Origin: a virus
Taxonomy: Duplodnaviria; Caudoviricetes
Virus record (IMG/VR): IMGVR_UViG_3300020045_016362
Location: 1 to 35,234 of that record
Length of the DNA stretch: 35,234 bases
Direction: 5' to 3' (one strand)
The notes under the pieces were generated by a model. It was given only the letters and a program-made list of their open reading frames with translations. It was not told the DNA's origin and did no database searches. Positions 1,763-33,199 of this stretch are shown in pieces. Each line of letters begins with the position of its first letter. Positions within the stretch are counted from its first letter, which is position 1. The position numbers and the translations under genes are program-made.

Positions 1763-4312
1763 TTAGCGTCTTGCAATATTGTAAGATCCTGATAATGAAT
1801 CTGCTATGGATCCCCTTCCTGATTGAAGCTGTTTTGATACTGTTCCTATTACATCTTCAATAGTTAAAACAGTATTTCCGTTCCCATCTTTTGAAGAAGA
1901 AATAGACGAAGCTGAATAATTATTTATAATAACGTTTGCTCCACCATTTGTCTGAGCTACTACTCCCAAAGACCCGTTAGAAGTCCTTGTTAATGGCATA
2001 ATCGCTTCTGGTCCAGCTTCTCCGAATAGCGCCATTGGAGCCATTGTCGGACTTGTTGCTATAGAATTAGTAAAAGCACCACCAGTAGCGAACGCCTGCA
2101 CTCCACCGCTAAAAGCCCCACCTTTTGCAAATCCGAAAAAGTCCGAGAATGAAAAAGATCCTTTATCACTATAACCACCACCGAAACCTGCGCTTTGCAT
2201 TGCATACTGCATAGTTTGAGCTACTGTCATTTTAATAATCATTTCTTGAATAGATTTAATTATATCTGTGAAAATAGATTTAGTTAACTCTTTAAAGTCT
2301 CCGAATTTTTTACTTGTTCCATCGAAAAAGTTTACAAAACCACTATTTAGAGCGTCTGTTATATCTAATAATAATGACGTTGTAGTCTCTGAAACGTTTT
2401 TAGTTTCTGTTTCTAATTGTCTATAGAATGTTTCTATACCATTCTCTACTGTTTGAATTTTTTTAAGATCTTCATCTCTAGCTTTTTTAGCTTCTTCTGC
2501 ATATTCTTTTTGTTTAACGATAGCCATTTCTTGAATCTGCTCTTGAGTTAGACCTAATTCTTGCCATTTCATCTTGTCTTGTTCTAATTGAATTCTGTAC
2601 TGCTCTTCATAGTTTTTTACTACTGAATAATATTCTTTATTTGCATCTAATATTTCATTTTTAGCGTCTAATTCTTCTTTTAACTCTGATTTAATCCTTG
2701 CTTTTTGATCTTTATCAAATTCAATTTTCTGTTTTTCATTCATCTGATTAATTTGTTCTGTTGTTAAATTACCACGCTTAATCAATTCTTGATTAGATTT
2801 AGATACTGATATTGCAAATGAAGTCTCGTAATCTTTCATTGTTGTATAATAGTTTTCTAAATCATCTAGTATAGAATCAGAAGTTTTTTTCATCTCTTCT
2901 TTTAGATCTGTTAATGTCCCTTCTTTTCCAACTTCTGTTTTTACTTTTACTTTGATTTCTGTATCTTCAGATCCTGATTTTTCTATAGAATCTAAAAGTT
3001 TATCAAATTCTTGTTTTGATTTTCTTACTTCATCTGTAAAAATATCAACTTCTTGAGCTAATTTTTCAGTAGGAGAAACAGTTAACGGCACTTGTAATTT
3101 TGATATAAACGCATCTAATTCTTTTTCATTTTTATTCATTAATAACGCACTATCAAGTAAACTTTTATTTAACTCTACTTGTTCGTTTTTTAGAGCATTT
3201 ATATAATTTGAAGATTTATCTATTTTACTATTCATATCTCCGATTTCATTAGAATAATCTTTAAACGATACTGCCTGCATCATTTCATACATTGATTTAA
3301 CAGTTTTATATGTTATTAAATCTAAATATTCAAAATTTTGTTTCCATACATTTATAAAATTTATAACATAGCTACTAATTACCTTTAATCCTAAAGAAAA
3401 AGCATCTTTTACATAAGCTATAGATCCCCCAAGTTTTAATAAATCACTCATAAATTGACGAGTAGCATTAGCTAAATCGTACATACCTTCTTTATTATCT
3501 GAAAATCTATTAAATTCTGCTGAAATAATTTCTAATTCTTCCTTTAAAACATCAAATAATCCTGTATTTTTCATAAATGAATCTTGCATTTGAGAATATG
3601 AATCTTTTATGTTAGAAATCATACCATCATAAGATCCGCTTAATTTGTCCATATTTCCCTGATAACTATTATTAAATATAGCTAACAATGTTGATTTAAT
3701 TATCTCTGCATTATTATTAATTAAAGCTATTTTAGATTTTCCTGACGAATCTGTCCAAGCATAACCTATTTTATCACCATTGGATGTTGCTGTTATACCA
3801 TATTCTTTTAAACGCTCATTAGATCCTTGCATAGCGTCTGCCATCATCTCGACAGCACTCATTATAGGTCTTCCAAAAGCTGACGCTGTATCTCCTAGAG
3901 TTGCCAAAGTTCCATTTGTTGGGTCTATACCATAAGCTTTTAGACGAATAAAAGATTCTGTTAATTCTTTAACTTCGTAGGGAGTTTTTTTAGCAAAATC
4001 TTTAATCCAAGCAAAACTTTTATCTGCTTTAACTGAAGATCCTTCTAGTGTATCAAGAGTTAATTTCATTTTTTCGAAAGAAGCCGCTACGTTAACTGTA
4101 TCCAACGCTACTTCTTTTAATGTTGATGTTAACATAGAAATACCTACAAATCCAGCTCCAGCTGCTGCTAGTCCTTTTATTGATGATGTTAAACTATTAA
4201 TTCCTGTTTCTGCATTCTTAGAATTTTTACTAATATTATTTAATTCATTTTTTAATTTTGATATATCTGATGTATTTTGTTTTATATAAAACTCAATTCC
4301 AAAATCTAACAT
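1763..4312 (-). CDS. Tail tape measure protein
   Basis: 849 aa helical protein; FAKKTPY...GDTASA N-terminal tape-measure domain and lambdoid C-terminal FAKGGAF...GEAGPEAIMPL. Confidence 0.93.
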   Translation of the reverse strand: MLDFGIEFYIKQNTSDISKLKNELNNISKNSKNAETGINSLTSSIKGLAAAGAGFVGISMLTSTLKEVALDTVNVAASFEKMKLTLDTLEGSSVKADKSFAWIKDFAKKTPYEVKELTESFIRLKAYGIDPTNGTLATLGDTASAFGRPIMSAVEMMADAMQGSNERLKEYGITATSNGDKIGYAWTDSSGKSKIALINNNAEIIKSTLLAIFNNSYQGNMDKLSGSYDGMISNIKDSYSQMQDSFMKNTGLFDVLKEELEIISAEFNRFSDNKEGMYDLANATRQFMSDLLKLGGSIAYVKDAFSLGLKVISSYVINFINVWKQNFEYLDLITYKTVKSMYEMMQAVSFKDYSNEIGDMNSKIDKSSNYINALKNEQVELNKSLLDSALLMNKNEKELDAFISKLQVPLTVSPTEKLAQEVDIFTDEVRKSKQEFDKLLDSIEKSGSEDTEIKVKVKTEVGKEGTLTDLKEEMKKTSDSILDDLENYYTTMKDYETSFAISVSKSNQELIKRGNLTTEQINQMNEKQKIEFDKDQKARIKSELKEELDAKNEILDANKEYYSVVKNYEEQYRIQLEQDKMKWQELGLTQEQIQEMAIVKQKEYAEEAKKARDEDLKKIQTVENGIETFYRQLETETKNVSETTTSLLLDITDALNSGFVNFFDGTSKKFGDFKELTKSIFTDIIKSIQEMIIKMTVAQTMQYAMQSAGFGGGYSDKGSFSFSDFFGFAKGGAFSGGVQAFATGGAFTNSIATSPTMAPMALFGEAGPEAIMPLTRTSNGSLGVVAQTNGGANVIINNYSASSISSSKDGNGNTVLTIEDVIGTVSKQLQSGRGSIADSLSGSYNIARR

Positions 4313-4979: not shown

Positions 4980-5953
4980 TAAAAACCCCCTATATTTATT
5001 ATTGATAAAGAAAAATTAGTTTTTACAGGATTAGACGCTGGATTATTAACATCCCATTCTATTCGATGTGGCACTGTGTGAATATATAAATGTTTACTAG
5101 TATTTGCTATAAAAGCGTCATTGTTTAATGATGTTATAATTGCTTGTTCTTCAATTGATGATAAAAATATTTGCATATTATTTTTATATACAAAAGAATC
5201 TTTAAATTTAATATCAACTATTCCATCTCTCAATACTGTAGTAGACTCTATATAACTTCCGTTATATTGACTAACTGTATTATTTGTGCTATTATAAATA
5301 GCTGTAAAATATGGCTCATTAGAAAAATCATAGATATTTAATGGCTTTTTAACTAATATCATATTAAAACCCTGAGCATATTCAAATTGACTATTAACAC
5401 CTGTCATCTGATTAGTACTGCCAGCTATTGTTCCATATGTGATAGTATTATCTGTTTTAGAAAACTGATAATGATATGTCATAAGATTAGCTGAAGCCTG
5501 ATTAACTGGATTAATAATAGTTATATAATCGTTTGTATTAAATGATGTATTTAATATAACATTAGATAATGATATAGTAGCTGATGTTATACCTGCTGAC
5601 TTATGTTTTTCTATTCCATTGATAACTGAGTAATATTCATCTACTATTTTTCCATCTTCAACGATTAAATCTTCTCTATATACTACGCAAGAGACTAATT
5701 TAGGATTTAAAGTTGTACTAAAAGCTCCATAAAAAAATAATGTGAATCCAGTTCCGCCTTCAAATTTTATAACATCGATTGCTTGATATTGTTTTCCTAC
5801 TTCATTAAAAACTGTACATAATACATTGTAATCTTCTAATATTGGCGTTTCGAATGTAAAAGAATAGTTATTATTGTTAGGTCTTGAGATAGAAGAAAAA
5901 CCCCATCCTACAGACTTCATTCCGTTTTTTTCATAACCTGCTATAATTTTCAT
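4979..5953 (-). CDS. Putative virion/adhesin protein with three beta-rich repeat domains
   Basis: N-terminal part resembles 4353..4979; C-terminal part (DFSNEPYF...GGF) resembles 5953..6438. Confidence 0.5.
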   Translation of the reverse strand: MKIIAGYEKNGMKSVGWGFSSISRPNNNNYSFTFETPILEDYNVLCTVFNEVGKQYQAIDVIKFEGGTGFTLFFYGAFSTTLNPKLVSCVVYREDLIVEDGKIVDEYYSVINGIEKHKSAGITSATISLSNVILNTSFNTNDYITIINPVNQASANLMTYHYQFSKTDNTITYGTIAGSTNQMTGVNSQFEYAQGFNMILVKKPLNIYDFSNEPYFTAIYNSTNNTVSQYNGSYIESTTVLRDGIVDIKFKDSFVYKNNMQIFLSSIEEQAIITSLNNDAFIANTSKHLYIHTVPHRIEWDVNNPASNPVKTNFSLSIINIGGF

Positions 5954-6438
5954 TAAAAACCCCCTGCGTTAACGAATACAATTTTAAAAGGAACATTTGC
6001 ATAGTATAATCCTATGTCTGTTGTACATACATAAATATTATTTGATGTATAATTTAAAAAATCTGCTACTGTGTGAATAGATAAAATGGCTCTTGATGTT
6101 AATACTCCGCCTACTGATCCAGTTACATTTCCAAATATCATAATATTACTTCTATCAAAATCAGTCTTAAAAACTAAAATAACTTTTCCTGTTTCTGTTT
6201 TAACTATATTATCTAAATAATTTCCGTTTTTCTCTACGAATGTAGTCGGAGAATCAGGTGTGTAATAAATAGTATAGTAGGGCTCATTAGTAAAATCGGT
6301 ATCAGGTAAAATAGGTTCGGGACCTGCTCCGTCATTTTTAGCTCCATATAATACTACTTTTTTACCGTTTTTATTATTAAATGTAATTCTTGATCTATTT
6401 TTAGTAATAATTTTTTTTTGATCTTTTAAAACAATCAT
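5953..6438 (-). CDS. Putative virion/adhesin protein (basic N-terminus, Pro-rich linker, one beta-rich domain)
   Basis: DFTNEPYY...GGF domain; AGGAG RBS and TATAAT upstream. Confidence 0.5.
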   Translation of the reverse strand: MIVLKDQKKIITKNRSRITFNNKNGKKVVLYGAKNDGAGPEPILPDTDFTNEPYYTIYYTPDSPTTFVEKNGNYLDNIVKTETGKVILVFKTDFDRSNIMIFGNVTGSVGGVLTSRAILSIHTVADFLNYTSNNIYVCTTDIGLYYANVPFKIVFVNAGGF

Positions 6439-6517
6439 TATAATGTCTCCTTTTTTTATTTATTATTATATCTTTTTCATAAGAAAATTAAAAATATTTA
6501 AAATTATATAAAAATTG

Positions 6518-6790
6518 TGTACATCGATGTCCCGATTAAAACCGTTGTACGCTCAAACGCCGACGTGGTGGGCATTCAATGGCTCGGACAACGGGACAAC
6601 GATTAGATCAAAAACTATATGAGATAATATGTGTATACCATAGCTATATACTATATATATAATATAAATACTTTTTAAATAATTAATGTCCCTGATGTCC
6701 CATAGTGTTTAAGCCCACCACTACGGGCTTTCAGCGTACAACGATAGGGACATTGATTAGTGTTTTGTACAATGATTCTATTGTACATAT
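6518..6790. repeat. Origin-like element, copy 1 (G[G/T]ACA iterons in both orientations around an AT-rich core)
   Basis: Imperfect direct repeat of 19400-19673; about 11 GGGACA/TGTCCC/TGTACA-type motifs; AT-rich core at ~6625-6686. Confidence 0.75.
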
Positions 6791-6795
6791 TATAT

Positions 6796-7169
6796 TTATT
6801 TGTTATTTTGTTTTAATTCTCTGTGTAATACAATTAACATATCAACGTAATCCTTTATATCGTTTTCTTCTACAGATAGTTTTAAATATGAAATAATATT
6901 ACTTATATCTAGATTTCCATTCATATCATTCATTGATAAACATTGAATTAAAACATTAATAATATAAGTTGACGTTGTATTGTGTTTGTAAGGTCGTCTA
7001 TGTATACACTCGAATTCTTTTGTTTCATTATTAAAATTATAAAAAGAATTATTTAAAGGAGCTGTTTTTAAAACGCAAGGGTGCAAGCCTGTTTTTTTGT
7101 CAGGCTTACATATTTTACATATTTTTTCAGAAAATAATATCCATCGAATTAATTTTTCTGTTTTTTTTT
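6796..7169 (-). CDS. Tail assembly chaperone, -1 frameshift extension (gpT-like)
   Basis: The -1 frame is open from the A9 run (7161-7169) as KKTEKLIRWILFSEKICKICKPDKKTGLHPC... to the stop at 6796; no convincing RBS for the TTG at 7086. Confidence 0.75.
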
Positions 7170-7523
7170 AATTTTTTGCATATCTTCAGTGAATATCTTC
7201 ATAATCAATTTAGCAAAATCAGACGAATATTCGAAAATTGCTTTAATATTTTCTTTAGTACATTCTAATTCTTTATTATCTGCTCCTATCCCTTCCCAGG
7301 AAATAATACTTTTTTGTAATAAAAGAATATTCAATTCGAACATATCAATATCTTCTTTTTCATTTTCTATCATTGTAGATTTTTTCAAGCTTTCGAAATG
7401 TTCTACTGATGATAACGATTTCATAGTAATTTTAAATTCAGAATCAGCATATATAGAGCCTTTAAAACCTTTATTTTTATTTGTAATTTCGATAGTTTCT
7501 GCTTTAATTTGTAAATTTAGCAT
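7149..7523 (-). CDS. Tail assembly chaperone (gpG-like)
   Basis: IISWEGI...LECTKENIKAIF motif; downstream of major tail gene; ends in a slippery A-run. Confidence 0.8.
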   Translation of the reverse strand: MLNLQIKAETIEITNKNKGFKGSIYADSEFKITMKSLSSVEHFESLKKSTMIENEKEDIDMFELNILLLQKSIISWEGIGADNKELECTKENIKAIFEYSSDFAKLIMKIFTEDMQKIKKKQKN

Positions 7524-7604
7524 TATCTTTTCTCCTGTTTTTTTGTTTTATTTATTATATCAAATGAAGAAAAAAATAACAAATTTTAAAAGGAGTTAAT
7601 ATGG

Positions 7605-7680
7605 TGGTGGAGAATAGCGGGATCAAACCGCTGACCTCCTGCGTGCAAAACAGGCGCTCTCTCAGCTGAGCTAATTCCCC
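7605..7680 (-). tRNA. tRNA-Ala(TGC) with variant A19/U56/U31 and an encoded CCACCA end (to 7602)
   Basis: GGGGAATTAGCTCAGCTGAGAGAGCGCCTGTTTTGCACGCAGGAGGTCAGCGGTTTGATCCCGCTATTCTCCACCA folds as a cloverleaf with G3-U70 and A73. Confidence 0.95.
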
Positions 7681-19329: not shown

Positions 19330-19399
19330 TAGTTTTCTCCTGTTTTTTATTTTTATTATATCTTTTTTGCTTTTTTTTAACAATTTTTGAAATATCTTA

Positions 19400-19673
19400 T
19401 GTACATCGATGTCCCGATAAAAACCGTTGTACACTCAAACGCCGACTGTATCGATGTTTTGAAGCCCGGACAACGGGACAACGATTAGATGAAAGACTTT
19501 ATGAGATAATATGTGTATACCACCATAGCTATACTATATATAATATATAAATACTTTTTAAATAATTGTTGTCCCTGATGTCCCATAGTGTTTAAGCCCT
19601 AAAGTAGGCACTTAGAGCGTACAACGATAGGGACATTGATTAGTGTTTTGTACATTGATTCTATTGTCCATAT
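19400..19673. repeat. Origin-like element, copy 2
   Basis: Imperfect direct repeat of 6518-6790; iterons conserved, spacers diverged. Confidence 0.75.
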
Positions 19674-20474: not shown

Positions 20475-20687
20475 ATGAAAATACAAATAATAGAAAATAA
20501 ATTAAATAATCTAGATGTTGATTATAAATCATTAAGAAATTTGGCGTCATTATTTCTAGAAGATTTAAAAAACATAGATTCATTTGAATTTAGAGTTGGA
20601 AAAAGAGAAACGAAAAAAACTATTAGATCTCATTTAGGTTTTTTAAAAAATGGAGAAATAGTTAAAATATTTGTTGAAAATATATAG
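20475..20687 (+). CDS. Hypothetical protein
   Basis: AAGGAG RBS and upstream TATAAT. Confidence 0.7.
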   Translation: MKIQIIENKLNNLDVDYKSLRNLASLFLEDLKNIDSFEFRVGKRETKKTIRSHLGFLKNGEIVKIFVENI

Positions 20688-20690
20688 TTT

Positions 20691-20804
20691 TTATTCGTAT
20701 TTTTGACGCAAAAGTTAAAAATTACTGTATAATATGTTATGTTTTAGGATTTAGAGTCCTATAACATATAAAGAAAAGAAAAAAAATACATAGGAAGGTA
20801 TTCA
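20691..20804 (+). promoter_or_regulatory. Early cassette copy 1 (lacks hairpin 2)
   Basis: TTATTCGT...TTGA-TATAAT, hairpin TATGTTTTAGGA/TCCTATAACATA, GGAAGGTA RBS. Confidence 0.8.
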
Positions 20805-21020
20805 ATGAAAAATTTAGATACAGTTTTAGAGAAACTTAAAAACTCTATTATATACATTATTAATAGTGATAGCGTTATATCTGCTGAGCATAGAGATAAT
20901 GTTGTTCTTGTTAAACAAACAAACAAAGAGACAGGTGAGAAATCTAATACATTAATTAAATTTGATTTAATTAGTTCTTTTCTAGAAAAAAATATAACTA
21001 ATTCTAGAATTTATTCATAA
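20805..21020 (+). CDS. Hypothetical protein
   Basis: Cassette RBS directly upstream. Confidence 0.75.
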   Translation: MKNLDTVLEKLKNSIIYIINSDSVISAEHRDNVVLVKQTNKETGEKSNTLIKFDLISSFLEKNITNSRIYS

Positions 21021-21041
21021 AAAAAACAGGGAAGGTAAAAA

Positions 21042-21356
21042 ATGAAAAAAGAATGTGGAAGAATAGCGCTTTTGAGCGATGTTGTAGAAAAAACAGTTTT
21101 AAATTATAATAATTATTTATTAGTAGATACATTTTCTAATACTATAATTACAGTTAAATTTAATCAATATTTTAATGTTGTTATTAAACAAATTAATAAT
21201 AGAAATTCAATAGAGCATTCATTTAATAGAGATGAATTAAATAATTATCTATTAAACTATCTATCTAAATATAGTCTAACTATTTTAAGAAAGTTTTTTA
21301 TCGTTGATCTAGAAAATAAAAATAAATTATCATTGATTGATAAGAAGGAGCTTTAA
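21042..21356 (+). CDS. Hypothetical protein
   Basis: GGAAGGTA RBS; weak similarity to 20805..21020. Confidence 0.75.
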   Translation: MKKECGRIALLSDVVEKTVLNYNNYLLVDTFSNTIITVKFNQYFNVVIKQINNRNSIEHSFNRDELNNYLLNYLSKYSLTILRKFFIVDLENKNKLSLIDKKEL

Positions 21357-21357
21357 A

Positions 21358-21513
21358 ATGTTAGAATATATTACACTATATGATGTTGTTTTATGTTTTT
21401 TTATGTATTGTTTATTTACATTAGTTCTTTTTGTTATTGATATAAAAAACAAAAATGATATTAACTATTTTAAAAATAGTAAATTAGATTTTAGTGTATC
21501 TAACAATGAGTAA
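21358..21513 (+). CDS. Small membrane protein, 51 aa (not in ORF track)
   Basis: AAGGAG RBS; MLEYITLYDVVLCFFMYCLFTLVLFVIDIKNK...; fills the gap and its stop overlaps the next ATG. Confidence 0.7.
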   Translation: MLEYITLYDVVLCFFMYCLFTLVLFVIDIKNKNDINYFKNSKLDFSVSNNE

Positions 21514-21793
21514 AAAATACTGTTCTTGTATACCTGACGTTATATTTAATATAGATATATCTGAAGCCTGCAAATTGCACGATAATATCTGTGGAGAAAA
21601 AGGTCCTTTAAATCCTTTTTCTTCTGTTATTCCGTTTTATAACTCTTTAATATCATTGAGAATTAATAAAATTCTTGTTATTATGATAGTTTTTGGCGGA
21701 ACTTTTGGATGTTTATTAAAATATCCTTATTTATTATATAAAAAAATTATCTGGAGAAAAGAAAATGGAAGAGAAAAAAATATACAATATTAA
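21506..21793 (+). CDS. Small protein with phospholipase A2-like CxxHD motif and C-terminal TM segment
   Basis: YCSCIPD...EACKLHDNIC; ATG at 21506 coupled to the upstream stop. Confidence 0.55.
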   Translation: MSKKYCSCIPDVIFNIDISEACKLHDNICGEKGPLNPFSSVIPFYNSLISLRINKILVIMIVFGGTFGCLLKYPYLLYKKIIWRKENGREKNIQY

Positions 21794-22136
21794 TTTAAAT
21801 ACTGTTAAAGAAGTAAAGAAAATAAAAAATATTGAGCATTTCGAATTTATGTGTTATTTATGTGATGAATGTATGTCGTGTAGAAATGATGCTCATTTAA
21901 ATATAGATAATTTATATAAATATATTACATATAATGATGATAGTAATATTAGTAAATTAATGTCATTATATAAAACTAAGAAATTAGAAAAATTAGTAGA
22001 AGATTTAATTAATGTTAAATATGAAAATTCTGTTTCTCCTGTTTTTTTAGTTGAGTTATTTTTTGAATTAGAATTAGAACATAAATTACAATTTGATCAG
22101 ATGATTAAATTATTGAAAAGATATTTAAAATTTTAA
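21765..22136 (+). CDS. Hypothetical protein with CxxCxxCxxC motif
   Basis: GGAG RBS; CYLCDECMSC. Confidence 0.7.
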   Translation: MEEKKIYNINLNTVKEVKKIKNIEHFEFMCYLCDECMSCRNDAHLNIDNLYKYITYNDDSNISKLMSLYKTKKLEKLVEDLINVKYENSVSPVFLVELFFELELEHKLQFDQMIKLLKRYLKF

Positions 22137-22204
22137 CAATAATCTAACTTTTTTCTAATTTGACTCCTATAACATCATATAAATAAAATTTAATAGGGGT
22201 CAAT

Positions 22205-22645
22205 ATGAAAAAAAGATTACTACTAGTGAATCAATTTAAGAAAATTATAAATACTGATTATGAATCAGATTTAAAAATTTTTAGCAAAACAGCGTTTAAA
22301 ATTATATGTGATGAAGATTATTTTTTAGCAGTTTCAAAATATGAAAATAAATACATTATAAAAAAACATAATCTAATTAATCTAGATTATATAATTTATA
22401 ATAAATTTATAATTATTAATAGATCTGTTTTAGTTAATAATGAGTTGATAAATAAAGAAAAATTATCTTTATTTTATTTTGAAAATATGAAAGAAGAAAT
22501 TAAAGATATTTTATCAATTGATGAAACTATATTTAATTCTTTTATGATAGATGAATTTAACAAAATTCTTTATGTAAAAAATAGTACTAATAGAAAGAAT
22601 TTATTATCAATATTCAATTTATTATTAAATTATTTAAAAATATAG
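22205..22645 (+). CDS. Hypothetical protein
   Basis: 146-aa ORF with AGGGG RBS. Confidence 0.7.
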   Translation: MKKRLLLVNQFKKIINTDYESDLKIFSKTAFKIICDEDYFLAVSKYENKYIIKKHNLINLDYIIYNKFIIINRSVLVNNELINKEKLSLFYFENMKEEIKDILSIDETIFNSFMIDEFNKILYVKNSTNRKNLLSIFNLLLNYLKI

Positions 22646-22660
22646 CCAGTTTTTGGCTAT
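22642..22660 (+). terminator. Possible terminator hairpin
   Basis: ATAGCCA-GTTTT-TGGCTAT at the stop codon; weak U-tract. Confidence 0.5.
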
Positions 22661-22701
22661 CTTTATAATAAAATGTATTTTTTTTATAAAAAATGCAATT
22701 A

Positions 22702-22851
22702 TTATTCGTGTTTTTGAGATTATTTTTAAAAATTACGGTATAATATGTTATGTTTTAAGAAAATGGGTCTTATAACATAGAAAGAAAAGTTTTTCTCGAA
22801 AGAGATTTAATGAATAAAAGAAATAAAAAAACCGACAGGAAGGTAAAAACA
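22702..22851 (+). promoter_or_regulatory. Early cassette copy 2
   Basis: Promoter, hairpin 1, TCTC-GAAA-GAGA hairpin, GGAAGGTA. Confidence 0.85.
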
Positions 22852-23058
22852 ATGAAAACTCAAAACTTAATTAATGTATTAACATTTAATTTTAAAAACT
22901 CTAAATCAATATCTAAAGAAGAAATTCAAAATATGATTAATAACTGTAAAAACATAGAAATGTTAGAAGCGTTTTATTTAGATGCACTAGAAACTGGAAA
23001 AAACTTTACTGTAGCTAGTTTTAAATCTATTATTAAAAGAATTAATGAAATTAATTAA
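22852..23058 (+). CDS. Hypothetical protein, 68 aa (start revised); paralog of the N-terminus of 23211..23714
   Basis: ATG follows the cassette RBS; shared LIN...FKNSK.I..EEI...FTV.SF motif. Confidence 0.8.
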   Translation: MKTQNLINVLTFNFKNSKSISKEEIQNMINNCKNIEMLEAFYLDALETGKNFTVASFKSIIKRINEIN

Positions 23059-23061
23059 TTC

Positions 23062-23210
23062 TTATTCGTGTTTTTGATAATAATTTTAAAAATTTAGATA
23101 TAATATGGTATGTTTTAAGAAAATGGTTCTTATAACATACCAGTTAAAAGTTTTTCTCGAAAGAGATTCAATGAAGAAGAAAAGAAAAAATTACGGGAAG
23201 GTAAAAAATA
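23062..23210 (+). promoter_or_regulatory. Early cassette copy 3
   Basis: TGGTATGTTTTAAGA/TCTTATAACATACCA, TCTC-GAAA-GAGA, GGAAGGTA. Confidence 0.85.
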
Positions 23211-23714
23211 ATGAAAACTACAACTAGAGCTTATTTAATTAATATGTTTGCAGAATATTTTAAAAATTCTAAAAATATAACTAGAGAAGAAATTTATGAA
23301 TCAGTAAAGGAATGCGATCCAGAAATTTTACACGAGTATTTTAAATTTAGAAAAACTACAAGATTTACAGTTTCAAGTTTTAGAGCAATGATTAAAAATG
23401 TTAAAATTCATATGAAAATTATTAACAAAATTAACGATAAAGAAGTTAAACAAAACATAGTACATTTTGAAAAAATTACAGATGAAGAAGAAAACTTATG
23501 TTATATTTTAACAGAAATTAATGATTATACAGATGAAGAATCTTTTTTAGATGATAATACAATTAGTCAATTAAAATATAAAAAAGATGAAACATTTGAT
23601 TATTTATTTTATAATACAGAAGAAGAAATTAGAGAAATATTAACAAAAAATAATTATGTTAATATTGATATTGATACAATTTCTTATAGATCACTAAGAA
23701 TCAGGGGGCTTTAA
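23211..23714 (+). CDS. Hypothetical protein
   Basis: Cassette RBS; acidic C-terminal half. Confidence 0.8.
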   Translation: MKTTTRAYLINMFAEYFKNSKNITREEIYESVKECDPEILHEYFKFRKTTRFTVSSFRAMIKNVKIHMKIINKINDKEVKQNIVHFEKITDEEENLCYILTEINDYTDEESFLDDNTISQLKYKKDETFDYLFYNTEEEIREILTKNNYVNIDIDTISYRSLRIRGL

Positions 23715-23932
23715 TGTTAAATAGAAAAAATTTATTAGAACAATTTAATATCTATGATATATTAATTAGTAATAAAAGTTATAATGCAAGCGATGCAGAT
23801 TTTTATTATCATATATTATTAGATGAAAAATTATGTTTAGATTTAGAATTTGAATTTATCATAACAGAATTATCAAGAGATAATTTTCAAGATTTTTTAA
23901 CTATCTATAGATTAGCTAGAAAATTAAATTAG
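23714..23932 (+). CDS. Hypothetical protein
   Basis: TAATG coupling with upstream gene; AGGGGG RBS. Confidence 0.7.
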   Translation: MLNRKNLLEQFNIYDILISNKSYNASDADFYYHILLDEKLCLDLEFEFIITELSRDNFQDFLTIYRLARKLN

Positions 23933-24071
23933 TTATTAGTGTTTTTGATAATAATTTAAAAAATTACAGTATAATATGTTATAAAACTTAATTTAGGTCT
24001 TATAACATATTAAAGTTTTTCTAGAAATAGATTTAAAAAGAAAGAAAAAAATTACAGGAAGGTAAAAAACA
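23933..24071 (+). promoter_or_regulatory. Early cassette copy 4
   Basis: AATATGTTATAA/TTATAACATATT, TCTA-GAAA-TAGA, GGAAGGTA. Confidence 0.85.
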
Positions 24072-24356
24072 ATGAAACGATTAAAGAGTTTTTCAATAGA
24101 TGATTTTATTGATGATATGAATGTTATGATAGATGTTTTTTTTGAAACAGAATCAGCTGATTTTAGAAATAAAATGTATGATGATATTATGAAATTATGT
24201 ATAACAAAAAGAATTAATAAAAATACTCTAGCAGAATTATTTATTAATTATAAATTAAAAGATTTTGTTATTAAAGCTGTTTTAAGAATTTTAATGAGAC
24301 ATTATATAGAAATAGATAATGAAGAAATTGAAGATAAAAAATTAGGAGAATTTTAA
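24072..24356 (+). CDS. Hypothetical protein
   Basis: Cassette RBS. Confidence 0.78.
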   Translation: MKRLKSFSIDDFIDDMNVMIDVFFETESADFRNKMYDDIMKLCITKRINKNTLAELFINYKLKDFVIKAVLRILMRHYIEIDNEEIEDKKLGEF

Positions 24357-24565
24357 TGACACGATTAGATTTTTTTTATAAAATTAGTAATGAAATTACA
24401 TTTATATCAGCAGAAGAAAAAACAGAGATTAAAAAATATTTGTTAATAACAGATGATTTTTATGATATAGCAGATAAAATTCTTTATCTATTAGATAATG
24501 ATAATCTAAATTATAAAAATTTTATGAGTGTTATTCGTATTTTTGATAATAATTTTAAAAATTAG
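24356..24565 (+). CDS. Hypothetical protein
   Basis: AGGAG RBS, TAATG coupling; last codons are read from the next cassette. Confidence 0.7.
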   Translation: MTRLDFFYKISNEITFISAEEKTEIKKYLLITDDFYDIADKILYLLDNDNLNYKNFMSVIRIFDNNFKN

Positions 24566-24676
24566 TGTATAATATGTTATAAAACTTGAAATAGAGTCTT
24601 ATAACATATTAAAGGTTTTCGCTTAAAGCGATTCAATGAAGAAAAAAATAAAAAATTACAGGAAGGTAAAAAAACA
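24531..24676 (+). promoter_or_regulatory. Early cassette copy 5
   Basis: AATATGTTATAA/TTATAACATATT, TCGC-TTAAA-GCGA, GGAAGGTA. Confidence 0.85.
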
Positions 24677-24976
24677 ATGAAAGATTTAAAAGAAGTAAAA
24701 CAGGTTTTAATTAGATTCGAAGATGAATCTAAAACAGCTAAATTAATACAAGAATTTGTATTTTCTAATTATGTGTTTAAAACAGGAGAAAATGAGTATG
24801 ATTTTGATAAATATTTTAATATCATAAGTTCCATAAATAAAATGTTTTTAAACTATGATACAAAATATGCTAGAGATTCATATGCTCTAATAGAATTATT
24901 CTATTTTATTAATCTAAAACAAGAAGAAAAAGAAGAATTATTATCTTTTTTGAAAGATTATTTAATTTTTATCTAA
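24677..24976 (+). CDS. Hypothetical protein
   Basis: Cassette RBS. Confidence 0.78.
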   Translation: MKDLKEVKQVLIRFEDESKTAKLIQEFVFSNYVFKTGENEYDFDKYFNIISSINKMFLNYDTKYARDSYALIELFYFINLKQEEKEELLSFLKDYLIFI

Positions 24977-24978
24977 TC

Positions 24979-25130
24979 TTATTCGTGTTTTTGATAATAA
25001 TTTAAAAAATTTAGATATAATATGGTATGTTTTAAGAAATTGGATCTTATAACATACCAGTTAAAAGTTTTTCGCTTAAAGCGATTCAATGAAGAAAAGA
25101 AAAGAAAAAAACCATAGGAAGGTAAAAACA
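24979..25130 (+). promoter_or_regulatory. Early cassette copy 6
   Basis: TGGTATG...CATACCA, TCGC-TTAAA-GCGA, GGAAGGTA. Confidence 0.85.
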
Positions 25131-25736
25131 ATGAAAACTCAAGAAATAAATTTAATGTTAAAAAAACAATCTGAAACAATCATAGAATCTATGAATAATG
25201 TTTTAGAGAATGTTAATGTTGCTAGAAAAAATAGTGCTTCTTTTGAAATTATGGATTATGATTTTGATAATAAATATTTTATATTAGAAAATAATAATGA
25301 TATAACAGTAGAAAATGATATCGTAGATGCAGATGTTATAGAAAAAAATACTGAATTACATATTTATACATATTGTAATACATATTTTAATGAATCTTTC
25401 GATAATACAAGAGATTTTATTATCATAGATAACATAATCTATCCGTCAAAAATGGCTTTCTATAAAATTTTTAAGAAAGAATTAAAAAATGCAGCTCTAA
25501 TTACTGGTTTAGATTATAAATTCTTATGTAATGTATTTAATAAATACTCTAAAGAAGTAGTTTTATTTTGTTTAAATTTAAGAAGAAATAAAAAATATTC
25601 TTCATTTTTAAAACTATTATTAATATTAACTGATTATGAAACTAATTTATCTAAATTTGATTATAACGATGTTGCTACAGCGTATTATAAAAAAATGTTA
25701 AAAATAGAATTCAAAGAATTTTTAGAGTTAATCTAA
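25131..25736 (+). CDS. Hypothetical protein, 201 aa (start revised)
   Basis: ATG at 25131 follows the cassette RBS. Confidence 0.8.
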   Translation: MKTQEINLMLKKQSETIIESMNNVLENVNVARKNSASFEIMDYDFDNKYFILENNNDITVENDIVDADVIEKNTELHIYTYCNTYFNESFDNTRDFIIIDNIIYPSKMAFYKIFKKELKNAALITGLDYKFLCNVFNKYSKEVVLFCLNLRRNKKYSSFLKLLLILTDYETNLSKFDYNDVATAYYKKMLKIEFKEFLELI

Positions 25737-25930
25737 TGAAGACTTTATTTCTTTTAGCTATTATATCAGTGTTTTTTAGCACTGATATATTGGCAGAAAC
25801 TAAATCTAATAATCTATTTAATAAAAAAATAGATAAAAAGTCTTTAGATAGTAAATTATTATCTAAGGATTTTGATAAAAAATATGAATTATTATGTAAA
25901 TTTGAAAAATGTAGAGTAATTCATAAATAA
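25736..25930 (+). CDS. Small exported protein
   Basis: Signal peptide MKTLFLLAIISVFFSTDILA; TAATG coupling. Confidence 0.65.
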   Translation: MKTLFLLAIISVFFSTDILAETKSNNLFNKKIDKKSLDSKLLSKDFDKKYELLCKFEKCRVIHK

Positions 25931-25939
25931 TTTTAATTC

Positions 25940-26090
25940 TTATTCGTAGTTTTGAGATTATTTTTTAAAATTACAGTATAATATGTTATGTTTTAAGAAA
26001 TAGGTCTTATAACATAGAAATAAAAAGAGTTTTTCGCTTAAAGCGATTCAATGAAGAAAAGAAATAATAAAAAAACAGGAAGGTAAAAAA
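25940..26090 (+). promoter_or_regulatory. Early cassette copy 7
   Basis: TATGTTTTAAGA/TCTTATAACATA, TCGC-TTAAA-GCGA, GGAAGGTA. Confidence 0.85.
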
Positions 26091-26378
26091 ATGAAAACAA
26101 TTAACTTAAAAAACTTAAAAACACTAACTAAAAGATGTAATTCTTATCTAACAGAAGATTTTAATACATATTTATTCTCTGTTGTTGCAGTAAATTATGA
26201 TAAAAGAACTTGTGCAGTAGTAAAATCGATAGCAGATGGTTATTTATATTGTGATTTTTCAGATGAATTTTCTATAAAAATATTTTCAGATGAAATAAAA
26301 GAGATGACATTCGTAGAAGTAGAACAATTTTTTAATGTTTCTATTAATTTTAATGTAAATTTAGATAAATTATTATAA
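26091..26378 (+). CDS. Hypothetical protein
   Basis: Cassette RBS. Confidence 0.78.
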   Translation: MKTINLKNLKTLTKRCNSYLTEDFNTYLFSVVAVNYDKRTCAVVKSIADGYLYCDFSDEFSIKIFSDEIKEMTFVEVEQFFNVSINFNVNLDKLL

Positions 26379-26495
26379 AAATATAGTATAATATGTTATA
26401 AAACTCATTTTGGGTCTTATAACATATTAAAGAAAGTTTTTCTCGAAAGAGATTCAAAAAGAAAAGAAAAAAAACCCATAGGAAGGTAATTATCA
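26359..26495 (+). promoter_or_regulatory. Early cassette copy 8 (5' part degenerate)
   Basis: TATAAT at 26387, AATATGTTATAA/TTATAACATATT, TCTC-GAAA-GAGA, GGAAGGTA. Confidence 0.82.
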
Positions 26496-28169
26496 ATGAA
26501 AAATTTAACAGCAGAACAAATAGAAAAATTAAACTCAATTAAAGAAACTGGATTTTTAGATGAGCAAAAAACTAAAAAACTTGTATATGATTTAGTTAGA
26601 GAAAAATATATTTTATTTAATTATATTAATCAAAATGACTATGATACAGACATTTTAAACAAAACAGAATCAGCTATGAAAATAGCTAAATCTTTTGCTA
26701 GTTTTGTACCTTCAAACGCTGTATTAAATGATACTAAAACAGTTAAATATGTATTTAACCCACGAAATAACGATCGATCGTATAACAGGGGTGGGATTAC
26801 TCATATAAACTCTTTTGACATCAATAAGACACGATTAAACGACACTATGAGCGAATTTAATAAAGTGGATTATAGTTTTTTCTATGCAAATTTTAAGGCT
26901 TACAAATTATTACTATTAAATCTATTTTCAACTGAAGAGAGAGCAAATTATTTTATTAATTGGCTATCTACTATTGTTAATACAAGAAAAAAAGTTTTAA
27001 CTTCAATAATTATCAATGGTGTTGAAGGATCAGGAAAAGGCGTTTTAAAGGACACCATAAAAACTATTTTTGGAGATAAATATGTTTTAGAAGCTGGCAA
27101 CGAGATAGTTTCTGGCTCATTTAATGGTGAATTAGACGAGAAATTATTTGTATTTTTTGAAGAAATTATAGTTGATTATAACAAAAATAAACAAATAGCA
27201 GGAAAATTAAAACGATGGATTACTGACCCTGTTTTATCAATAAACGCTAAATATGGTGCTCAATTTTCAGTAGAAAACTTCTTTAACTGTATGTTTTTTA
27301 CTAATGAAGAAAACCCGATCGAAATTAAAACAGGAGATAGAAGATATTCTATTTTTAAATCTCAGAATAAACTATTAGATATCATAGATGAGTCCGAATT
27401 TGATTCTTATAATGATTTTTTTAATTGTTTAGAATCTGAGAAAATAGATTTTATTAATTTTCTTTTTAGATTAAAATATGACGAAAAAGCGACATTGAGA
27501 CCTTTCGATACAGAAGAAAAGGACGGTATCATTCAGAGCACTAGTACAAAAATAGAAATTCTTAATGGATTGTTAAATAAAGGACTTTATAATGAATTAG
27601 AGTATAAAATTGAAGAATTAATAGAGCTAAAAAAACAAATGAATCAGTTTTATCCTAGAAATTATAAAGAAATTTTAAAGGAAATTCAAGATGATATGAG
27701 TAAATCTAGAATTCAATTAAAACTATTGCCTTTTTTATATACTACTCTAGTAGACGAAAACGAAACATCAGTTATTAAAATCGGAGCTAAATTTAATAAC
27801 CTAGGAGAGAAAAAATCAGGTAGGGGAATCTCTTACAGAAAATTAAATAAACCTTATAATTCAGTTGATACATCAGCAGAATTTATTAATAATAAAAATG
27901 TTGTTATAGATGAAAAATTTAATGAAATTATCATAGAAAATTCAGATAATGTATTATCTAAAAATGACGTAAAAAGAGTAGAAGTTTTTTCTTTTAGTGA
28001 ATTTGTAAAATATGCTAAAGAAAACGAAATATCTTTTTTAGATATAGAAGAATTAGATAATGTTGTTTCTTATTATGATAAAACAACTAAAACTAATTAT
28101 TTTTTAAATAAAGAATTGATAAATAAAGATCAATTATCATCATTAAGTAATGTTTTATGCCCATTTTAA
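26496..28169 (+). CDS. SF3/D5-like replicative helicase (DUF5906, NrS-1 polymerase helicase-like)
   Basis: Walker A GVEGSGKG, Walker B VFFEE, motif C FFTNE, GDRRY; no evident primase domain. Confidence 0.88.
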   Translation: MKNLTAEQIEKLNSIKETGFLDEQKTKKLVYDLVREKYILFNYINQNDYDTDILNKTESAMKIAKSFASFVPSNAVLNDTKTVKYVFNPRNNDRSYNRGGITHINSFDINKTRLNDTMSEFNKVDYSFFYANFKAYKLLLLNLFSTEERANYFINWLSTIVNTRKKVLTSIIINGVEGSGKGVLKDTIKTIFGDKYVLEAGNEIVSGSFNGELDEKLFVFFEEIIVDYNKNKQIAGKLKRWITDPVLSINAKYGAQFSVENFFNCMFFTNEENPIEIKTGDRRYSIFKSQNKLLDIIDESEFDSYNDFFNCLESEKIDFINFLFRLKYDEKATLRPFDTEEKDGIIQSTSTKIEILNGLLNKGLYNELEYKIEELIELKKQMNQFYPRNYKEILKEIQDDMSKSRIQLKLLPFLYTTLVDENETSVIKIGAKFNNLGEKKSGRGISYRKLNKPYNSVDTSAEFINNKNVVIDEKFNEIIIENSDNVLSKNDVKRVEVFSFSEFVKYAKENEISFLDIEELDNVVSYYDKTTKTNYFLNKELINKDQLSSLSNVLCPF

Positions 28170-28252
28170 ACATTATTGTTAAAAATTAAGCTATAATAAA
28201 GAATAAAAGGGGAGTTATTCCCCTAAAAAAAAACCATAGGAAGGTAAATTAA
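28170..28252 (+). promoter_or_regulatory. tnpB promoter/leader
   Basis: TATAAT at 28192, AGGGGA/TCCCCT hairpin at 28208-28224, AAACCATAGGAAGGTAA RBS as in the early cassettes. Confidence 0.75.
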
Positions 28253-29479
28253 ATGGAATCAGTATTTTATGCAAAACAAAAGTTAAAAAAAATTAGTGAT
28301 CTTGATAGTAAAGTTTTATATTTATTATTTAAACACTCAGCAAAATTATATAACGAAGCGTTATATTTAATCAATAAAAACTTCGAAAAAGATAATAAAT
28401 ATACTACATATGTAGACGTTGATAATTATTTAAATCATTGTAAAGATAATTTTCAATCAAAAAATTATGAGTTATTAGGTTCTTCTTTATCATTATCTAT
28501 CATAAGAAATTTAGATATTAATTTTAAAAACTTCTTCAGTAATAGAAAAAAAGAAGGAAATCTTGAGCGCCCAACTTTTAGAGATAAGAACTTCTTTATA
28601 TCTATTTTTAAATCTATTTATTCTGTTAAAGATAATTTTATAACTATACCATTAACTAGAAAATTTAGAGAAACTTATAATATTCCATCAGATTATAAAT
28701 TACAGTTTTATATATCTAAGAATTTTCAAAAATTAAGCTTTAATCAAATTAGAATATCGCAGTTTAATGATAATAATTATTATTTAGTATATCATTATAA
28801 GAAAGATATTATAGAGAAAAAAGAAAACAATAACAACTATCTTTCTATTGATTTTGGAGTTGATAATCTGTTATCTTGCTATCCATATATTCACGAACAA
28901 AACGATCTAACTCCATTCATAATTAAAGGTGGAACTATTAAATTTATTAATCATAAGAATTTTTTATATTCAAAAATGCAATATGAAAGAAATAATAATA
29001 ATTTTAATTCAGAAAAAATTAGTAAACATCTTCAAAAAAGAAATAATCAAATAGAAGATTATTTTAATAAATGTTTAAAATATATTATAAATTACTGTGA
29101 ATTTTATAATATTAATACTATAGTGTGTGGTTTTTTTAAGAATATCAAGCTAAAACTAGTAGCAAAGTCTTTTTTCTATATTCCATATTTAAAATTAAGA
29201 AGAAAATTTAGAGATTATTGTTTAAAAAGCGGAATAAATGTTTATTTTATAAATGAATCTTATACATCTAAAACATCTTTTTATGATTATGAGAGTGCTA
29301 CAAAAAGCGACGATTACGCTGGCTCAAGAGTGAAAAGGGGGTTATTTAAAACAAAAGAAGGCCTTCGAATTAATGCTGATATTAATGGTGCTGCTCAGAT
29401 TTTAACTAAATTTATTAATTTTAAGATTAATGATAGAGAAAATATATTAAAAAATCCTATTATATTAAAGATTTCTTAA
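28253..29479 (+). CDS. tnpB: TnpB-family RNA-guided endonuclease, stand-alone
   Basis: N-terminal KLYNEALY helix, RuvC-I SIDFG, IVCG with rearranged Glu in NESYTS, RVKRGLF, RuvC-III NADING; no Zn-finger cysteines. Confidence 0.9.
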   Translation: MESVFYAKQKLKKISDLDSKVLYLLFKHSAKLYNEALYLINKNFEKDNKYTTYVDVDNYLNHCKDNFQSKNYELLGSSLSLSIIRNLDINFKNFFSNRKKEGNLERPTFRDKNFFISIFKSIYSVKDNFITIPLTRKFRETYNIPSDYKLQFYISKNFQKLSFNQIRISQFNDNNYYLVYHYKKDIIEKKENNNNYLSIDFGVDNLLSCYPYIHEQNDLTPFIIKGGTIKFINHKNFLYSKMQYERNNNNFNSEKISKHLQKRNNQIEDYFNKCLKYIINYCEFYNINTIVCGFFKNIKLKLVAKSFFYIPYLKLRRKFRDYCLKSGINVYFINESYTSKTSFYDYESATKSDDYAGSRVKRGLFKTKEGLRINADINGAAQILTKFINFKINDRENILKNPIILKIS

Positions 29480-29482
29480 TTT

Positions 29483-29525
29483 TTATTCGTAATTTTGCCG
29501 CAAAAGCAAAAAATTATGATATAAT
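29483..29525 (+). promoter_or_regulatory. Cassette-type promoter downstream of tnpB
   Basis: TTATTCGT...TTTTG...AAAAATTA TGATATAAT (extended -10). Confidence 0.75.
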
Positions 29526-29530
29526 GTCTA

Positions 29531-29646
29531 TGTTAAAGAAGAATATTATAGAATAGACTTCTTAAGATTTGATTTAGTCTTAACGTGTTGTTTAAAATAA
29601 ATCATCCAATACCACGTCCTAGAGCAAGATTCTAGGACCTTTTTTT
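29531..29646 (+). ncRNA. Candidate TnpB-associated structured ncRNA (~115 nt)
   Basis: Own promoter; successive stems AAGAAG/CTTCTT, TTAAGA/TCTTAA, ACGTG/CACGT; terminator GTCCTAGA/TCTAGGAC plus T7; no RBS. Confidence 0.7.
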
Positions 29647-29647
29647 C

Positions 29648-30040
29648 TTACTTAACAAAAACAAACGCTTTAACTGCAATAGCGCAAAGAGCTGTTATAA
29701 TCCCAAATCCTACTTTAATCATAATATTCTTAACTTTTTCTATCTCTTGTTTATTATCTTTAATTTTTTCATCTAAGTTTTTTTCGCTTGATTTTAAGAA
29801 TTCTTCTTTAATACAAACTTTTTTATCTTTTTGTGTTTCTTTAAAATCTTCTTTAAGAGCCTTCAATTCTTTATCTAATGATATTAATTTTTCGTCGTGT
29901 CGTATTTGAGCGTGAAAAATTTCTGAGAGATCGTTTACTACCCTAGATAAATTAGATTGTTCTGTTTTTATAGCGCCTATATCTTGTTTTATATTCATTA
30001 ACATATTAAACATTTCGCTATTTGATTTAGTCTCGTCCAT
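29648..30040 (-). CDS. Coiled-coil protein with C-terminal TM helix (XhlA-like holin/antiholin candidate)
   Basis: AGGAG RBS; architecture and position after the tail genes. Confidence 0.55.
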   Translation of the reverse strand: MDETKSNSEMFNMLMNIKQDIGAIKTEQSNLSRVVNDLSEIFHAQIRHDEKLISLDKELKALKEDFKETQKDKKVCIKEEFLKSSEKNLDEKIKDNKQEIEKVKNIMIKVGFGIITALCAIAVKAFVFVK

Positions 30041-32821: not shown

Positions 32822-33199
32822 TTAATATAATTTTTCAATTTCGTATATTTCTATTATATCAAAATTTATATTCACACTATTTTCAGAAAAACTATTATTT
32901 ATTTCTGAAACTATTTTAACAATTGAATTAACCATAAGCTCGTCTTTCTTTATATTAACAGAAAAAGGAAGCATTCCATTTTTAATAGTCATAAAATAAA
33001 AATCTTGGAAAATACTAAAATCCTTCTTTAACATAGATATGTTAACAGAGAATTTTTCTTTTGCTTTTTGCTCTAATTTTTTATTTATAATTAAATTATT
33101 ATCATCACTAAGAAAAGTAAAATATTTTCCTTTTTCTTGAATGTAATTACTCAAATCAAATAATCCTAAAATTTTTGGAAACTCTTTATATTTTATCAT
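32822..33199 (-). CDS. Distal tail (gpM/Dit-like) protein, paralog 2
   Basis: FQDFYFMTIKNGMLPF motif. Confidence 0.55.
   Translation of the reverse strand: MIKYKEFPKILGLFDLSNYIQEKGKYFTFLSDDNNLIINKKLEQKAKEKFSVNISMLKKDFSIFQDFYFMTIKNGMLPFSVNIKKDELMVNSIVKIVSEINNSFSENSVNINFDIIEIYEIEKLY

Follow-up and report, generated by a model that had tools for sequence, protein, structure and literature searches.

At the end of the early gene block of a tailed phage, a tnpB gene lies between a P4-like primase/helicase gene and a convergent late gene, and a predicted non-coding RNA with a promoter-like box of its own follows the tnpB stop codon (Table 1). The stretch of DNA analysed, referred to here as the window, is a complete phage genome of 35,234 bp with direct terminal repeats and a G+C content of about 24%, and encodes terminase, capsid, ClpP and SLT proteins in addition to the P4-like primase. 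Early genes occupy the plus strand behind repeated promoter-leader cassettes and late genes the minus strand, with tnpB closing the early block. Eight early cassettes at 20685–26494 have in common a promoter, the palindrome ATG(G/T)TAT...ATAACAT and a GGAAGGTA site, and most of them contain a second small hairpin between the palindrome and GGAAGGTA. The initial annotation had placed tnpB behind the phage's own early leader and a cassette-type promoter behind its stop codon; both are recognisable from the letters, the first as copies of repeat families D2 and D7 and the second as a further D2 copy, and a −10-like box likewise precedes the RNA in six other loci. The palindrome, which may be an operator or a leader hairpin, is present after all eight other early promoters tested and absent from the tnpB leader and the RNA promoter, a hint of common regulation for both. 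Neither of these two promoters is reported by a plain sigma-70 scan, because both lack a −35 box.

Table 1 Coordinates of features at the tnpB–RNA locus of the window
Feature	Position	Strand	Basis or remark
P4-like primase/helicase gene	26496–28169	+	PF19263; TIGR01613 below cut-off
Early-type tnpB promoter, −10 TATAAT at 28192–28197, without palindrome	28149–28197	+	Repeat family D2, 67% to reference copy
Leader hairpin (28207–28224) and phage-type ribosome-binding site GGAAGGTA (28239–28246)	28207–28246	+	Repeat family D7
tnpB, 408 aa, without zinc finger; triad D200/E335/D376, G293 at the canonical position	28253–29479	+	
Second early-type promoter, for the RNA, −10 TATAAT at 29520–29525	29477–29525	+	D2 copy, 84% to 20685–20733
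Non-coding RNA, predicted, about 115 nt; candidate for the partner (guide) RNA of TnpB	29530–29646	+	Fold z −2.89
RNA 5′ hairpins, 29536–29563 and about 29563–29582	29536–29582	+	Fold prediction
Possible pseudoknot, loop 29570–29576 exactly complementary to 29598–29604	29570–29604	+	
Box, ATCCAA here and TTCCAA in 4/7 loci; likely scaffold end, or conserved seed	29604–29609	+	
3′ segment that varies, reaching the terminal loop; candidate guide as revised here	29610–29624	+	
Terminal 9-bp hairpin with CAAGA loop, then T run	29616–29646	+	Loop identical in G193 and L172
Convergent late gene, coiled coil and C-terminal hydrophobic stretch	29648–30040	-	
14-nt exact match to RNA 29567–29580, antisense to the first codons of the convergent gene	30020–30033	+	Probably chance

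The host is likely a Campylobacterota bacterium, as judged from a tRNA-Ala pattern taken from the phage that matched Campylobacterota in 110 of the 120 loci listed (29 of 64 parts scanned). The tRNA-Ala(TGC) gene that served as this marker is of Campylobacterota type and lies at 7605–7680 on the minus strand, behind a terminator-like hairpin. Strains about 90–96% alike to the window are present in wastewater runs from four studies, and these, together with the G+C content, point to Arcobacteraceae as the host family. When 184 Arcobacteraceae genomes were searched for CRISPR spacers or prophages matching 20 kb of the window, AT-rich noise was all that came back, a weak result since mostly two candidates were scored per genome. 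Elsewhere in the window, a non-coding direct repeat of about 280 nt (families D6, D16 and D19) occurs in two copies 12.9 kb apart, at 6515–6790 and 19397–19673; the copies are 90–94% alike and GC-richer than the genome, and may be an origin, a packaging site or a recombination site.

TnpB protein and active site

The tnpB open reading frame matches the profile NF040570 (guided_TnpB) with 119 bits against a cut-off of 100. An AF2 model of the protein (pLDDT 86) aligns end to end with Cas12f, ISFba1 TnpB, ISDra2 TnpB and Fanzor2 with Z scores of 20–24 over 343–364 residues, and a sequence search of the PDB with the window TnpB gave no match. As judged from the profile match and the bilobed REC–WED–RuvC fold of the model, aligned over 321–364 residues, the protein is a member of the TnpB/Cas12f superfamily.

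The initial annotation had recognised three acidic RuvC residues together with a shortened region after IVCG and a QILTK motif. The three residues are present in a rearranged form, in which a glycine (G293) takes the place of the canonical RuvC-II glutamate, with E335 42 residues further on. This D-E-D triad is kept in 22 of 22 proteins of the clade described below, with a Gly-to-Glu spacing of 42–44 and an NADxN-type RuvC-III motif, and none of the 22 has a CxxC (zinc finger) after the glutamate. The shortened region and QILTK are likewise real and are traits of the whole clade (22/22) instead of damage; a damaged RuvC domain was ruled out, since every member of the clade shares the unusual motifs and the rearrangement is of a kind already described. 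The alignment of the model and the motif count further indicate that the full recognition lobe is kept along with the triad. A sub-clade of 10 TnpBs (P0013, P0014, P0038, P0044, P0053, P0121, P0122, P0127, L082 and L170) carries a C-terminal extension of about 60–80 residues that is missing in the window TnpB, and its RNAs are the shortest.

A rearranged RuvC-II site, with Gly or Pro at the canonical position and an alternative Glu about 45 residues on, is described for TnpB2/RIIr-5 (PMC10530073, PMC10691335), and this triad type is reported as active in TvTnpB and a Fanzor (PMC10530073). By its motifs the window TnpB has an active site of the TnpB2/RIIr-5 type, and the nuclease of the clade is predicted to be active. 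The likeness consists in the canonical RuvC-II glycine, the Glu 42–44 residues on, the NADxN RuvC-III motif and the full TnpB/Cas12f fold. The clade differs from TnpB2/RIIr-5 in having no zinc finger and in a gene inherited with the phage; it may be an unnamed branch in the data of PMC10691335.

Inheritance of tnpB and comparison with insertion sequences

Together with its closest homologues the window TnpB forms a group of 22 proteins, which a long branch (SH-aLRT 100) separates from 49 other TnpBs in a quick tree with a midpoint root and outgroups picked from hit lists. DNA context was read for seven of these 22, namely the window, L002 (G001), L080, L082, L170 (G002), L172 (G003) and L445 (G193), and all seven sit among tailed-phage genes in phages of 30–35 kb, likely of Campylobacterota. 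Of the other fifteen, P0006, P0012, P0038 and P0044 are examples that come from contigs of 36–42 kb. Five longer relatives have several orthologues in common with the window, and L080 has the primase in common. The primase lies upstream of tnpB in six of the seven loci, directly or across one to three small ORFs, with orthologues in L080, L082, L170, L172 and G193; L002 is an incomplete record with no primase match. In all three complete family genomes tnpB is beside the primase, G193 having been recovered via terminase alone, and three further family fragments end short of the tnpB region. Identity to the window is 31–47% for TnpB, 27–37% for the primase, 26–44% for the capsid and 50–65% for terminase, so that TnpB identity lies within the primase and capsid range and its divergence resembles that of phage backbone genes.

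Among 301 Campylobacterota genomes there is no member of the clade; only distant IS TnpBs were found, in six genomes and at no more than 146 bits, compared with 450–647 bits for the phage clade members. Strain contigs span the primase–tnpB junction and the junctions from tnpB through the RNA to the next gene, and in four runs no joint skipping tnpB was listed, the contigs showing presence and not absence. Within tnpB, silent changes make up 22 of the 27 differences listed (pN/pS about 0.05, from the best-supported 40 of 291 differences), and by this measure the gene is under purifying selection. As for further loci, scanning viral contigs with single proteins or with N-terminal sequence added none, 11 of the 12 matches of a TnpB pattern search were not TnpB, and a search with the RNA motif pattern returned the known L170 record only.

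Neither a Y1 (PF01797) nor a serine (PF00239) transposase was found in four records, the window and three related ones, in searches whose controls matched in 6 and 12 of 14; a missing transposase is not decisive alone, as tnpB-only elements exist. The window tnpB is a single copy in the genome. Its stop codon coincides with the start of the phage promoter copy, and no right-end hairpin or end motif lies at or just after the stop in the window, whereas ordinary relatives have right-end hairpins and variable flanks close to the tnpB stop. The best hairpin near the window stop reaches −8.0 against a median of −12.7 in 138 other loci, a comparison confounded by AT content, and a C-terminal G-x-P coding motif occurs in none of the seven clade loci versus 69 of 138 non-clade loci. 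As there is no right-end hairpin, we ruled out a guide that begins in the 3′ part of tnpB and runs into the promoter. The initial annotation's claims of no tnpA, no IS-type ends and phage domestication hold up under these searches. Because clade, synteny, co-divergence and selection agree, TnpB has very probably been domesticated as a transposase-free gene that is inherited as a fixed part of the phage.

Related tnpB genes occur in large phage records (L008, L019, L025, L029, L041, L056, L058 and others). In these a 3′ coding hairpin has a loop, GTAGT, that by eye is complementary to TAACTAT 40–50 nt past the stop. In one phage record, L011, two tnpB copies less than 10 kb apart have an identical right end and different 3′ flanks.

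The predicted RNA downstream of tnpB

The region 29530–29648 of the window folds with a z score of −2.89, and one of 200 shuffles was as good; the terminator-like hairpin at 29616–29638 contributes to this value. A non-coding unit of 95–115 nt with its own −10 box is present in all seven loci, each consisting of the −10-like box, an N-T-N-(C/G)-A-A box 57–89 nt from the start of the −10-like box and then a hairpin, a motif defined after the sequences were seen. The RNA lies within 0–130 nt of the tnpB stop in six of the seven. In G193, L172, L170 and L082 it forms three helices in which 8 of 17 pairs are changed on both sides, a number that none of 500 shuffles equalled, and the helices are 78% paired versus 31–47% in slid controls; this set consists of four related sequences, and the structure was drawn from the same four. 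The alignment thus provides good but not conclusive evidence for a covarying RNA family in the relatives. A model of these four sequences, built without L080, finds the L080 RNA as its best match (E 0.027) and has no match at E ≤ 1 in 63 non-clade tnpB loci.

The window RNA matches the family weakly, at rank 3 and E 1.6 with the four-sequence model and, with L080 added to the model (R2), at rank 1 and E 1.8 in 70 kb; the match falls in a 168-nt segment named beforehand (prior about 0.001). As such, the separate structured RNA proposed by the initial annotation is borne out as a predicted unit that is conserved and covaries in five relatives, while the window copy itself stays at E 1.8. The RNA region of L002 gave no match to the family model at E ≤ 3 and has TATCTTCCAA in common with G193 and L172. 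That region, at 3559–3870 after tnpB, spans about 310 nt and comprises three diverged units, all with AAAAGACT; the middle unit has a tRNA-like acceptor stem, a T-arm and CCA, and is called by neither ARAGORN nor Rfam. Rfam covariance models matched no family in the window RNA or its relatives, a negative of little power because ordinary IS relatives also gave none.

In L172 the lysis block (5906–7610) is inverted relative to G193 and L170 and has carried the RNA gene along. The RNA and its −10 box now lie about 1.6 kb from tnpB on the opposite strand, and a leader-like stub and a terminator were left behind tnpB. This relocation of the RNA with its own −10 box marks it as a unit under its own selection. 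From their sequences, all seven phages are predicted to carry a structured RNA behind a promoter-like box. We infer that TnpB binds this RNA, which is on balance probably its partner RNA.

The position of a guide would differ from that first proposed. The initial annotation had placed it at 29585–29615, a segment that is mostly conserved core: in the family alignment it falls where the RNAs are conserved best, and its positions 29598–29604 are complementary to the loop at 29570–29576. Equivalent pseudoknot pairings of 4–5 bp, with the letters changed, occur in L170, L082 and L080; the pairing has 3 bp only in G193 and L172, and L002 has a plain stem instead. The box that follows reads TTCCAA in four of seven loci, and TTAGAA, CTTCAA and ATCCAA in the other three. 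Between G193 and L172, the core is identical at 30 of 31 positions and the next 14 nt at 8 of 14; in this one pair the sequences would fit a conserved scaffold with one varying segment, the pattern that the annotation had suggested looking for in related phages. In ordinary relatives a hairpin loop likewise pairs, as read by eye, with the final nucleotides of the right end. The conserved core, the loop complementarity and this pairing in ordinary relatives together place the probable scaffold end at 29604–29609 and a guide at about 29610–29624; a variable guide, if there is one, would be the 3′ 15–17 nt from about 29610. Alternatively, the box itself could be a short conserved seed. One strain contig over 29499–29629 shows seven differences and no gap, so no exchange of the whole guide is seen in that strain.

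Searches for a target gave no candidate. The RNA (29526–29645) found nothing better than E 0.3 among INPHARED phages and PLSDB plasmids, and 29530–29616 gave scattered matches in 121 Arcobacteraceae genomes (best E 2e-4), of which 45 loci inspected were unrelated genes. The 15-mer from the box, with up to two mismatches, showed no excess over control in 184 Arcobacteraceae genomes, and no exact match was among the 150 matches listed of 1181 in these genomes. Seeds searched against the family genomes, and RNA duplexes with start regions in six genomes, revealed no common orthologous target. These blanks are weak, Arcobacteraceae being only the probable host family; as they stand, the proposed aim at host or competitor DNA has found no target in phages, plasmids or the 121 and 184 Arcobacteraceae genomes. 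As the initial annotation had found by eye for its proposed guide, no target was found in the window itself, where matches of 14 and 15 nt are at chance level. The longer of these, between the 5′ end of the RNA and 33023–33037, was discarded, as it includes untranscribed letters and a 15-mer match has a 9% chance.

Possible functions and known systems

The reading that we prefer, tentatively and somewhat below an even chance, is that a transposase-free fixed gene and a conserved RNA together form an early TnpB–RNA nuclease with a fixed guide against non-self DNA. In this scheme, host-sigma70-type promoters that lack the palindrome present at the remaining early promoters would drive early transcription of tnpB and the RNA, and TnpB would bind a short scaffold (about 60 nt in relatives and 80 nt in the window) composed of two hairpins and a small pseudoknot and ending in a (U/A)UCCAA box. 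This box resembles the TCAA-type right end of IS605-group elements, a resemblance also seen in the loci of ordinary relatives. The 15–17 nt between the box and the terminal-hairpin loop would be trimmed into the guide, and cleavage by the complex would fall on one fixed target, whether in a co-infecting phage, a plasmid or the host, with competitor exclusion in the manner of free-standing homing endonucleases as the outcome. A 3′ guide with cutting of foreign DNA is possible rather than probable. Against the proposed nuclease, the terminal hairpin takes up half of the candidate guide, the L172 RNA moved with the lysis block and not with tnpB, and gene and RNA may both simply be core features.

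It is unlikely, though to be weighed seriously, that the RNA belongs to the convergent lysis block as its terminator module, or is one of the phage's small RNAs, and that TnpB uses another RNA, acts unguided, for instance as a replication or recombination nuclease near the primase, or serves to decoy guide RNAs of the host. Opposite the RNA, six of seven loci have a similar convergent coiled-coil gene (one ORF intervenes in L082), gene and RNA moved together in the L172 inversion, the L080 RNA overlaps the end of the convergent gene, conservation extends over almost the full length with the terminal loop included, and the target searches are negative, all as such a module would have it. TnpB nevertheless retains its recognition lobe and triad, and its 3′ end offers no right-end RNA as a substitute. 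The RNA, besides its position close to the tnpB stop in six of seven loci, comes with a promoter of its own, a pair of covarying 5′ hairpins and a conserved single-stranded box, more than a terminator would require.

That the TnpB–RNA pair is mainly an RNA-guided DNA-binding regulator like the TldRs is improbable. The UUCCAA box would then not end the scaffold but be a seed directed at some conserved motif of the host. One example is the reverse complement of the sigma-54 promoter, whose consensus is presumably TTGGAAC...TTGC; a literature search for this consensus gave no usable source. The box is TTCCAA in four of seven RNAs although the TnpBs are only about 35% alike, and five of five Campylobacterota genomes have sigma-54 genes and TTGGAA-N6-TTGC sites. 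TldRs bind by a TAM and a seed of about 6 nt (10.1101/2023.11.30.569447). The intact triad (22/22) is unlike TldR, however, the other three loci have different boxes, and the site counts are not above a reversed-pattern control, itself biased, in two of the five genomes. Control of the neighbouring late gene through the 14-nt match, as antisense or as a TnpB guide, is very improbable: only 0.6% of shuffled RNAs match any start region so well, but the start-region test was chosen afterwards, 25% of shuffled RNAs match as well somewhere in the genome, five relatives tested have no equivalent, six genomes have no common orthologous target, and the letters concerned sit inside a hairpin. An ordinary IS200/IS605 or IS607 element, or a decaying remnant, inserted in the phage is scarcely credible and this reading is largely refuted, for although ordinary multi-copy IS that have right-end hairpins and variable flanks do carry TnpBs of the wider zinc-finger-less group, and phages often bear IS tnpB (10.64898/2026.02.14.705889), the position is constant in phages with primases only 27–37% alike, the single-copy gene has no transposase, no right-end motif and mostly silent changes, and the clade is absent from 301 genomes of the host phylum.

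With IS200/IS605 (IS1341-type) and IS607 elements and their reRNA or omega RNA, the locus shares the TnpB profile and an RNA downstream of the gene, and it differs in having no transposase, no ends, a single fixed locus and no Rfam match. IS guide RNAs normally overlap the gene and take their guide from flanking DNA, whereas the window RNA has no gene overlap, the L172 RNA is about 1.6 kb away and the 3′ segment is not flanking DNA; the TvTnpB RNA adjoins the transposon right end (PMC10530073), and here there is no right end and the RNA has its own promoter. The fliC(P)-TldR of Enterobacteriaceae prophages and oppF-TldR are similarly domesticated without transposon ends, phage-borne in the fliC case, with a fixed-guide RNA encoded downstream of TldR (10.1101/2023.11.30.569447, PMC13622181). 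TldRs have a broken RuvC triad, scaffolds of 95–97 nt and known promoter targets; the clade has kept its triad, in 22 of 22 proteins and hence is not TldR, and has a shorter predicted scaffold and a place beside the primase.

Free-standing Seg/Mob homing endonucleases (PMC13565253) also lie as nuclease genes between conserved phage genes with phage expression signals and could cut competing phages; the system proposed here would differ in being RNA-guided. No recipient allele or target site for homing was found, and all three complete family genomes carry tnpB; homing stands without a demonstrated recipient because no tnpB-free family genome is known. Phage tnpB is otherwise reported as IS copies or beside CRISPR arrays in PMC12607003, 10.64898/2026.02.14.705889 and 10.1101/2024.08.14.607894. 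The last of these describes Thermus Lalka phages, which likewise have a phage TnpB with a neighbouring RNA locus; the window differs, with no repeat-spacer array among its repeat families, and three diverged units occur in L002 only. The same absence of an array among the window repeat families answers the test for a type V CRISPR-Cas (Cas12f) system. By three tested features the locus is not an IS, and it is not a CRISPR system. A literature search that left subscription journals mostly uncovered found no account of the clade or the RNA, and none on TnpB with Campylobacterota and phage.

The current view of active TnpB is that it assists a transposon and depends on a guide bound to the end of that element, and to our knowledge the described phage domestications of TnpB are nuclease-dead repressors. 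Here, a TnpB with an intact site has been kept by a phage lineage over deep divergence, alongside a candidate guide RNA encoded by a gene of its own. Should this RNA turn out not to be the guide, the findings of the clade and of the RNA family would be unaffected. If binding is confirmed, the locus would represent a route from a transposon RNA to a free guide gene without CRISPR and a natural, very short scaffold for a nuclease of 365–466 aa, and the role of TnpB in phages would become directly testable. It is conceivable, on the doubtful side, that an active TnpB as a core gene and a free-standing guide gene with a scaffold of about 60 nt serve as a fixed-target weapon or regulator against the Campylobacterota host or competitors. 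Were that reading true, the phages would have a guided nuclease system without CRISPR or transposon, in which the guide gene can move apart from the nuclease gene, and the three-unit RNA of L002 would be a start of multiplexing.
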